This document shows positions 11,756-13,285 of a stretch of 64,000 nucleotides of DNA, piece by piece. A program made the translations under genes and the position numbers. The stretch is from NCBI GenBank assembly GCA_002402995.1, contig DHGX01000001.1, positions 85,625-149,624 of the forward strand. Direction: 5' to 3'. The stretch comes from Patescibacteria group bacterium UBA4787 (GTDB lineage Bacteria; Patescibacteriota; Patescibacteriia; UBA2591; UBA4787). Positions within the stretch are counted from its first letter, which is position 1. Every line of letters starts with the position of its first letter. The notes under the pieces are model-generated. The model searched no databases and had not been told where the DNA came from. It saw only the letters and a list, made by a program, of their open reading frames with translations.

Positions 11756-13285
11756 ATGAAGAAGAGAATTATTGGGATAGAGAATGAATATCGGATTCAG
11801 GCTCTGCCCGGATTCGATAAAAGCAGATACAAGGTTTATTTTCGGGGATTGAAAATAAGCTTGAATCAGTTTCTATCCAACGGAGCGAGGTTTTATTTGG
11901 ATTTTCCGAGCGAACTGCCGGAGTATTGCACGCCGGAAGTTACGACCATCCGTGAAGTTCTGGCGCATGAACGCGCCGGAGATTATATTGTCTGGGAGAG
12001 CCTGAAAGACATGATGGAAATTTTTAGGCGGAATACCAGTCAGCCAGGTCTCTTTTACAAATATCTGGCAAGTGGTTGTCATGAGAACTATCTTTTTTAT
12101 CTTGATGAAGCTATCAAGTCAACTGCGAATATCTACCCGCAGATGAGCGGCCACATCTTGGCAAGATTGGTGGCTTTTTTGGGGCCCTTCTTGGTCTCTC
12201 GACAGATTTTTTGCGGCGCTGGTTGGTGGTTAACAAATGAAGATGGGCGAAGTTATTTTAATATTTCGCAGCGCGCCCATTTTATGAAGCGTGATTACGG
12301 CGGAGACACGATGCAGAATAGGGCGATTATCAATTCTCGGAATGAATCATTGTGTTCGTCGAGCAATTATTCTCGTCTTCATCTCATTGTTGGCGACTCC
12401 AATATGAGCGATCTCTCTGGTTTTCTCAAGCTCGGCACCACGTCTATCGTTTTAAGGATGATCGAAGCAGGCTTCTTTGATCCACAAGACATTGTTCTAG
12501 TTGATCCGGTTGCGGCTATCGCTGTCATTTCCGATGATTTGAGCTGTAAGGCGACTGTCCAGGCCGGCGGTTTGCATCGTTCGCTTTCAGCCATTGACAT
12601 CCAAGAGTGGTATCTTAATAAAGCTCGTGAATTTTTTGAATGTCGAGAAGTATCCGAAGAGGAGAAGGAGGTTATAAAATATTGGCAGGAAGTTTTGGAC
12701 AAACTGCGCCGAGACCCCATGCTTCTCAAAGAGGAGATCGACTGGGTGATCAAATATAATTTGATTTGCCGTTATGCTGAAAAACACGGTGTTGATCTCG
12801 ATCATTGTTCGGACGAGGAGAGTGAAGCGCTGAGAGTCATTGACACTCATTATCATTCTCTAAATCCGGAGAGAGGTTTGTACCACAAGCTTCTCGGCGC
12901 TGGGAAGATCGCCAAGCTTATTAGTGATAAAGAGGTGGCTTTGGCAATAAAATCTCCACCGACTGATACGCGAGCCAAAGTCCGTGGTGACTTCATTTCT
13001 TTCATCCTGAAAAATCATGCGGATTTGGTTAGGTATTTCATCGTCAATTGGGACGCTATTCGTTATAATTATCGTGCTAATGGATTTTCTAGGCTGATCC
13101 ACGAATTTCAACCTAATCAAGACGATGAATCGGTGAAAGCCTGTGTTTTCAATCTCGGCGATCCGTTTCTTTCAACAGAAACTTGCAACAACTTCCAAGT
13201 ATTGGTTGAAGAGATTGAGTCTCACCAAGAATTTTTCAAATCTATGATACCAACTCCGTCTCCTGACCATCGCGATTATGAATAG
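11756..13285 (+). CDS. pafA: Pup ligase family protein, PafA-like (paralog 2)
   Basis: [81 protein letters not shown]. Start chosen at MKKRII with SD AAGGAGAG. The GIENE-to-NGARFY spacing is short, which is PafA-like. Confidence 0.8.
   Translation: [509 protein letters not shown]

Follow-up and report, generated by a model that had tools for sequence, protein, structure and literature searches.

Why should two neighboring genes that have diverged at about half of their nucleotides share one short stretch letter for letter? The question is raised by a 64,000-nucleotide (nt) stretch of DNA from Patescibacteria group bacterium UBA4787 (assembly GCA_002402995.1, contig DHGX01000001.1, positions 85,625 to 149,624 of the forward strand; called the window below, always at its full length), in which two tandem genes of the Pup_ligase family, both PafA-like and here named A and B, lie at the 3′ end of a Pup/UBact-type proteasome locus. 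A first-pass annotation of this DNA had drawn attention to 59 bp of perfect identity between the two genes, and had read it as a recent gene-conversion patch between tandem paralogs or, alternatively, as an assembly collapse. Our comparison of the window with related genomes points to interparalog gene conversion between tandem, anciently duplicated genes that has recurred as a form of concerted evolution, and we consider this reading very probable. The argument turns on the following features, given in window coordinates.

11756..13285, + strand: gene A, Pup_ligase family (PafA-like), 509 amino acids (aa); Pup_ligase PF03136, E = 8.6e-106
13431..14900, + strand: gene B, Pup_ligase family (PafA-like), 489 aa; Pup_ligase PF03136, E = 6.2e-112; structure modeled with AlphaFold2 (AF2)
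12695..12753, + strand: perfect-identity tract, gene A copy; bases specific to the window lineage and common with B at 12711, 12712, 12730 and 12733
14418..14476, + strand: perfect-identity tract, gene B copy; bases specific to the window lineage and common with A at 14434, 14435, 14453 and 14456

The 59-nt Tract

The 59-mer (TTGGACAAACTGCGCCGAGACCCCATGCTTCTCAAAGAGGAGATCGACTGGGTGATCAA) was re-found as an exact match at both places where it had been reported, 12695-12753 and 14418-14476. It occurs exactly twice in the window, both times on the + strand, and no other match with up to three mismatches was found there (0 expected from shuffles). The two copies lie in frame, cover homologous codons of the tandem genes, are delimited by mismatches at 12694/14417 and 12754/14477, and end with two nt (AA) of a Lys codon. 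The description of the flanking codons as similar in protein and diverged in DNA is correct for the upstream EEEKEVI..WQE.

In a protein-guided codon alignment, A and B are 44.6% identical in protein and 51.5% identical in DNA over the whole length; without the tract, DNA identity is 49% and identity at third positions is 33%. The second-longest exact run in this alignment is 10 nt, as against 59 nt in the tract, and the longest run obtained in 20,000 shuffles of the codon columns was 25 nt, none attaining 59. The same codon is used at 17/17 degenerate codons of the tract, compared with 62 of the 180 identical residues elsewhere (34%; P ~1.4e-8). The 59-nt identity is far beyond chance. The tract has a guanine-plus-cytosine (GC) content of 52.5%, compared with 44% for the genes.

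Relatives and the Identity Island

Relatives were sought in 5.8 billion proteins and in genome and metagenome contig collections. These searches returned only two related lineages, one represented by contigs L001 and L002, which come from ENA and JGI assemblies and are mutually identical in the ligase array, and the other by L003 (JBBTUI010000023.1), a groundwater metagenome-assembled genome (MAG). Two further matches were more distant, a single-copy gene (P0007) and P0006, which lies on a 1.8-kb contig. The nearest relative in public databases is a MAG annotated as Patescibacteria group. We label sequences of the window W, those of L001/L002 L1 and those of L003 L3, and designate the Pup_ligase-family paralogs A, M, B and C, the last being a Dop-like gene upstream of the modifier gene of the locus. 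Protein identity between L1 and the window is 81% for A, 87% for B and 93% for C. In both related lineages the modifier gene is followed by three tandem paralogs, of 509 aa (A), 497-503 aa (M) and 489 aa (B), of which M is missing from the window.

The comparison with related genomes that the first-pass annotation had proposed thus reveals the same region homogenized among three tandem paralogs. In the relatives, an island of codon columns 346-404 (177 nt), which contains the homolog of the 59-nt tract, is near-identical among A, M and B, at 173-174 of 177 positions in L1 and 161-165 of 177 in L3 (93-98% overall by one account). Its edges are sharp, the flanks being 50-64% identical. A separate repeat search in the relatives gave three copies of 197-198 nt with 87-95% identity. 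Paralog C stands outside the conversion; around the tract, its nt identity with A and B is 50-52%. The window holds two copies of the island.

12584..12760, + strand: island homolog in gene A; the match to B is confined to the last 59 nt, the upstream 111 nt having diverged from every other copy
14307..14483, + strand: island homolog in gene B; it keeps the version common to the relatives' A, M and B throughout and is identical to B of L1 at 158/177 positions

Evidence for Gene Conversion Among the Tandem Paralogs

Outside the island, the proportion of synonymous codon differences between paralogs is 0.49-0.67, near saturation. Inside it, the proportion falls to 0.04-0.06 in L1 and 0.16-0.19 in L3, and in the tract of the window it is 0/17, while W and L1 orthologs differ at 3-4 of 16 synonymous sites in the same tract. 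In the tract, then, the paralogs of one genome resemble each other more than they resemble their orthologs, although the duplication predates speciation, which argues for conversion and not conservation. Neighbor-joining trees bear this out, since for both flanks the A, M and B ortholog clades receive 100% bootstrap support, whereas for the 60-nt tract W A and W B group together at 97% and the ortholog clades at 0%; the identity matrices agree.

Individual substitutions tell the same story. At tract nt 17, 18, 36 and 39, both W copies read CGA..AAA GAG, whereas 6/6 copies of L1 and L3 read CAG..AAG GAA. The outgroup has CGA, and the Gln codon (CAG) is therefore derived and spread to three genes. 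A mosaic patch of 15-18 nt (AAr TAT TGG CAG GAr GTT, encoding KYWQEV) occurs in W A and L3 B and is absent from their orthologs, and 170 of the 276 informative site pairs fail the four-gamete test. If the W copies had last been homogenized at the split of W from the relatives, the probability of 0/17 synonymous differences would be ~0.001, so that at least one conversion must have happened later, in the lineage of the window. The single-copy outgroup L007 shares with the tract 37/59 nt and only 2 of 12 degenerate codons for the same residues; since it encodes the same residues with other codons, no general codon or nucleotide constraint applies.

Taken at the level of sequence, these comparisons show that the sampled lineages split only after A, M and B had diverged to ~45-55% identity in protein, and that concerted evolution of the ~177-nt island within each genome extends over at least three lineages. 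The gene-conversion reading of the first-pass annotation gains support from the grouping of the tract by genome and of the flanks by ortholog, and from lineage-specific substitutions common to the paralogs. Its description as a recent patch holds insofar as the W tract was converted after the split from the relatives; it does not hold for a one-off event, given that the island persists in at least three lineages. To judge from the alignments, the 59 nt of the window are the most recently homogenized part of the island and not an isolated patch.

Several points weigh against this reading. The history rests on few genomes, with only three independent lineages in the databases searched. The location of the island is not explained by the strongest purifying selection alone, so that an additional cause, either selection or history, is needed. 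Moreover, dependence of the conversion on RecA or on another pathway is only presumed.

Proposed Mechanism and Probable Loss of Gene M

An old tandem duplication would have been followed by divergence of the copies, probably under selection for different specificities. Each new mutation in the island of one copy could then have been erased, or copied to the others, by heteroduplex formation and repair during non-reciprocal homologous recombination, presumably RecA-dependent, with the heteroduplex anchored on flanking identical bases. Conversion would be unable to extend into the ~50%-identical flanks, leaving sharp and stable edges, and conversions that homogenized specificity-determining flanks would probably be removed by selection as well. 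In the lineage of the window, A appears to have escaped homogenization in the upstream two-thirds of the island, with only the last 59 nt converted after the split. About 25-30 nt of identity are needed for efficient RecA-type recombination in E. coli; the 59 nt exceed this length, and conversion can therefore continue.

The spacers between the ligase genes bear on the absence of M from the window, and contain the following elements.

11666-11727 and 13351-13412: TTGACA promoter-like modules, 62 nt, 81% identical
11533-11563, 13326-13351 and 14899-14925: hairpin terminators
13326..13433, + strand: A-B spacer module, consisting of the terminator hairpin 13326-13351, a TTGACA promoter-like site and the leader/ribosome-binding site (RBS) repeat 13402-13433

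Judging from these predicted elements, the ligase genes are transcribed separately, each with its own promoter-like module and terminator. In both spacers of the relatives, terminator and promoter form a module, AACGCTCCTAATAATTAGGAGCGTTTT(T)AAATTTGACAAA, whose copies are nearly exact repeats of each other. When the A-B spacer of the window (13286-13433) was compared with the two spacers of L003 (4598-4745 and 6237-6379), it proved collinear over its whole length with the A-M spacer of L003 and then joined B at a 32-nt leader repeat (AAATCGTTCTTTACAAAGGAGGAAATAAAATG). The switch of the spacer at this repeat implies that one unit, M with its downstream spacer, was deleted between leader repeats, and the comparison indicates that the missing M reflects a deletion by recombination between short repeats. 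That M was instead inserted in the relatives seems less likely, given its identity of only 50-56% with A and B. Loss of M by recombination at the 59-nt tract was also considered and is rejected, since each half of W A and of W B has its ortholog in the corresponding gene of the relatives.

The tract shows that repeats only tens of bases long undergo homologous recombination in the lineage of the window, which also accounts for the loss of the array unit. The 59-nt direct repeat is itself a potential deletion hotspot, and phylogenies or domain analyses of these ligases will be misled by the island segment.

Alternative Explanations

Could the tract instead be a nucleotide-level element, such as an RNA structure, a target of a small RNA (sRNA) or antisense RNA or a DNA site, conserved since the duplication without any conversion? 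Its synonymous sites are frozen between the paralogs and it is richer in GC than the genes that contain it, but the paralogs have derived substitutions in common and show less divergence among themselves than from their orthologs, a pattern that independent constraint cannot yield. Moreover, the outgroup L007 uses different codons, high GC at third codon positions (GC3) is found also in the non-converting paralog C, and the fold z-scores of the tract (+0.15, +1.03, -1.08 and -0.76) are not significant. A search of the tract against Rfam gave no match at E<=1, and no promoter- or terminator-like site was found in or beside it on either strand. The nucleotide-level element is already largely refuted and keeps only a slight chance of being right. 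Next to no probability attaches to convergent codon choice under translational selection on a conserved peptide, since the peptide ...LDKL.R.PM....EIDWVIK is indeed conserved in related Patescibacteria proteins, yet identical residues elsewhere in the same genes share their codon in only 34% of cases, the outgroup shares only 2 of 12 degenerate codons, and the pattern follows the genome and not the residue. An artifact of assembly or binning, whether a collapse, a chimeric join at a common k-mer or a strain consensus, would fit a window that comes from a metagenome-type assembly, and 59 is one of the k values common in de Bruijn assemblers. However, assemblers do not create in-frame identity at homologous codons, and the exact 59-nt repeat is shorter than a typical read. 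Both halves of W A and W B match their own orthologs in the relatives with no swap at the tract, both copies sit in unique, orthology-consistent flanks, and the same island is present in at least two independent assemblies from other samples and pipelines (L001, which equals L002, and L003). The assembly-collapse alternative offered with the first-pass annotation therefore finds no support in view of the homologous pattern in the relatives, and an artifact, judged without reads, is very unlikely.

Gene conversion, then, stands as the preferred explanation of the identity, and a further proposal concerns the location of the island. The possibility that the island is simply the most conserved region of the protein is rejected by its conservation rank of 238 among 431 alignment windows in the family alignment; conservation is far higher at residues 51-72, 98-118 and 207-245, none of which is homogenized between A and B. 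Conversion could instead be combined with positive selection for homogeneity, the island being a module that all ligase paralogs must have alike, such as a putative binding surface for the one Pup-like modifier or a loop for auto-pupylated turnover, so that converted alleles would be favored and not merely tolerated. This addition fits the persistence of the island in three lineages with the same downstream edge and the fact that exceptional protein conservation does not explain it. Lys320 is the main self-pupylation site of Mycobacterium smegmatis PafA and controls the stability of that enzyme (PMC4783102). The tract is homologous to the PafA peptide that contains K320, and all A, M and B copies have a Lys within one residue of the K320 position, in a predicted loop (B residues 341-344). 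PafA contacts its substrates through a hinge (50-51), a loop (63-66), an extended loop (196-216) and R442 (bioRxiv 10.64898/2026.04.10.717840; PMC10465538), all of them in the diverged flanks and none in the island; A, M and B each alter the extended-loop motif RDEPHAD in a different way, and the helical region of the modifier also differs between W and the relatives. On the other hand, W A has diverged in two-thirds of the island without apparent gene loss. The AF2 model of B places the island in helices 295-312 and 317-335, a short helix 337-340, the loop 341-344 and the beginning of helix 345-359, and the downstream edge falls inside this last predicted helix and not at a module boundary. 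A neutral, self-perpetuating island of identity predicts the same pattern and explains the data as well, and we regard selection for homogeneity as possible but unlikely. Somewhat more doubtful again is the broader proposal that the array comprises two or three specialized ligases, an E3-like diversification, in place of the single PafA of Actinobacteria. The parts of these ligases that recognize substrates would diverge, while recombination would keep one internal module identical, including the loop homologous to the PafA auto-pupylation site, and this identity would be selected. If it were true, all ligases would stay compatible with one modifier, with one common turnover control, or with both, and the island would be maintained and not a neutral relic. 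The overlap of the homogenized part with the homolog of the PafA self-pupylation site provides a testable hypothesis.

GC-biased gene conversion was also considered, as GC3 of the tract is 0.65-0.80 compared with ~0.45 in the rest of the genes, but paralog C likewise has 0.65-0.75 and no claim is made.

Relation to Known Systems

RecA-dependent gene conversion is known to keep bacterial paralogs evolving in concert, as with tufA/tufB in Salmonella and E. coli. Ribosomal RNA (rRNA) operons also evolve in concert by gene conversion (PMC6002687). As in both of these systems, the paralogs described here are kept identical within a genome, including at synonymous sites, and group by genome and not by orthology. 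In contrast to them, where whole near-identical genes at distant loci are involved, the present case concerns an internal island of 59-177 nt in tandem genes that are ~50% identical. Interparalog gene conversion has been described for the PE/PPE, PE_PGRS and esx families of M. tuberculosis (PMC13061034, PMC12046097, PMC1762029). The M. tuberculosis families resemble our case in their short conversion tracts between diverged paralogs, in their mosaic genes and in the signature of identity runs combined with phylogenetic incongruence. Conversion is discussed there mainly as a source of antigen diversity between strains, whereas here one fixed segment is homogenized across lineages.

Homogenization of one part of a gene while the rest diverges is known from mammalian IFIT1/IFIT1B and RHD/RHCE. 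There, as here, recurrent conversion is confined to part of the gene and specificity-determining parts escape; in contrast, those systems are eukaryotic, meiotic or mitotic, with much longer tracts. Neisseria pilE/pilS and Borrelia vlsE undergo programmed cassette conversion for antigenic variation. Short conserved segments in variable genes serve as recombination anchors in these systems as in ours, but whereas silent donor cassettes generate diversity there, all copies of the ligase array have their own promoter-like site, RBS and terminator, and the result is uniformity. No sign of a programmed mechanism is seen at the array. The process is thus the already well-known one of concerted evolution in a new place, which is notable for the short and persistent island and for a multi-ligase Pup locus in a reduced-genome bacterium of the Candidate Phyla Radiation (CPR).

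The Pup/UBact-Type Proteasome Locus

Positions 6370-14900 of the window, which has a GC content of 39%, hold a complete Pup/UBact-type proteasome locus in a genome of the Patescibacteria (CPR). Upstream of A and B it comprises the following genes.

6370-8094: ARC/Mpa-type AAA ATPase (TIGR03689, 367 bits)
8298..9869, + strand: third Pup_ligase paralog, C, Dop-like, with a ~63-residue insertion at the Dop-loop position
9853-10602: proteasome beta subunit (PrcB)
10618-11322: proteasome alpha subunit (PrcA)
11324..11527, + strand: open reading frame (ORF) of a Pup/UBact-like modifier, 67 aa, ending ...DEREGQ

The modifier gene is followed by A, B and then nusA. A UBact variant of the Pup system in other phyla was reportedly described by Lehmann et al. 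in 2017. The gene content of the window is the same as that of the actinobacterial Pup-proteasome system (Mpa/ARC, Dop, Pup, PrcBA and PafA) and of UBact, and the modifier likewise ends in G-Q. Unlike those systems with their one PafA gene, the locus has diverged tandem PafA-like genes, two in the window and three in the relatives; all of its components score below the NCBIfam equivalog cut-offs, and its 67-aa modifier matches no Pfam or NCBIfam family. The modifier is presumed to be the common substrate of the ligase paralogs. Our literature search on Patescibacteria returned nothing relevant to UBact or to pupylation. That a full locus of this type has two or three such diverged ligases suggests substrate specialization among bacterial "ubiquitin-like" ligases, and this context may outrank the tract in interest.

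Paralogs A, B and C each match Pfam Pup_ligase at E<1e-100, and the PF03136 domain spans the full length of A and B. The AF2 model of B (predicted local distance difference test, pLDDT, 86; predicted template modeling score, pTM, 0.91) superimposes on the Dop/PafA structures 4B0R, 7OXY and 4BJR with a template modeling (TM) score of ~0.8. Scores against the PafA model TIGR03686 are 277 bits for A and 315 bits for B, compared with an equivalog cut-off of 551, and those against the Dop model are about level (288 and 311 bits). Because both proteins fall below the NCBIfam cut-off and score about equally with the PafA and Dop models, we call A and B PafA-like and not assignable equivalogs. The spacing from the GxExE strand to the NGARxYxD motif, measured by inspection, is ~25 residues in A and ~35 in B, compared with 33 in an actinobacterial PafA (P0008); it is ~63 residues in paralog C and 64 in a Dop protein (P0019), and A and B are without the Dop-loop insertion. 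Columns E9 and E11 of the family alignment are nearly invariant and D59, H113, E114 and N115 are invariant, and all are present in B; the catalytic and ATP/Mg motifs (GxExE, the D of NGARxYxD, and HENY) are present in A too, which has CHENY. The PafA-like label is a reasonable, though not proven, assignment from these motifs and scores, with ligase activity as a prediction.

The true start of gene A is probably the ATG at 11756 and not the ATG at 11720 given in the ORF list (521 aa), because a Shine-Dalgarno-like sequence (AAGGAGAG) precedes the former and the orthologs are called from the equivalent codon (509 aa).

Additional Observations

Paralogs A and M of the relatives have a second patch of ~87-134 nt in columns 274-303, with ~81-91% identity, equal to that between orthologs.

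L001 10619-10752 / 12330-12463 and L003 3685-3819 / 5357-5491: second patch in A / M, including ...IVLRM

This patch may record an additional, weaker conversion limited to A and M.

A neighboring tandem pair of overlapping ORFs (16543-17769 and 17750-18955; 408 and 401 aa; overlap of 20 nt), whose products are 34% identical and carry an HEEQH/HEERH motif, served as an internal control for the ligase genes and showed no nucleotide identity island; no Pfam match is recorded for this pair in the relatives.

Inside the tract (12725-12750 and 14448-14473), a GAGGAG Shine-Dalgarno-like motif stands 9 nt upstream of an in-frame GTG, the Val codon of DWVIK. An internal start giving a C-terminal fragment is conceivable from this arrangement. 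As an explanation of the identity it was rejected, as GAGGAG is simply part of the K-E-E codons and an internal start cannot explain identity over 177 nt.

The predicted helical region of the modifier contains several charge swaps between the window (11324-11527; ILDDIIERNKR) and the relatives (L001 9621-9824; ILKDVVKRNER). The distant lineage L007 encodes a modifier of 55 aa (3041-3208) that ends in KEGE, not REGQ, and would therefore need no deamidation.

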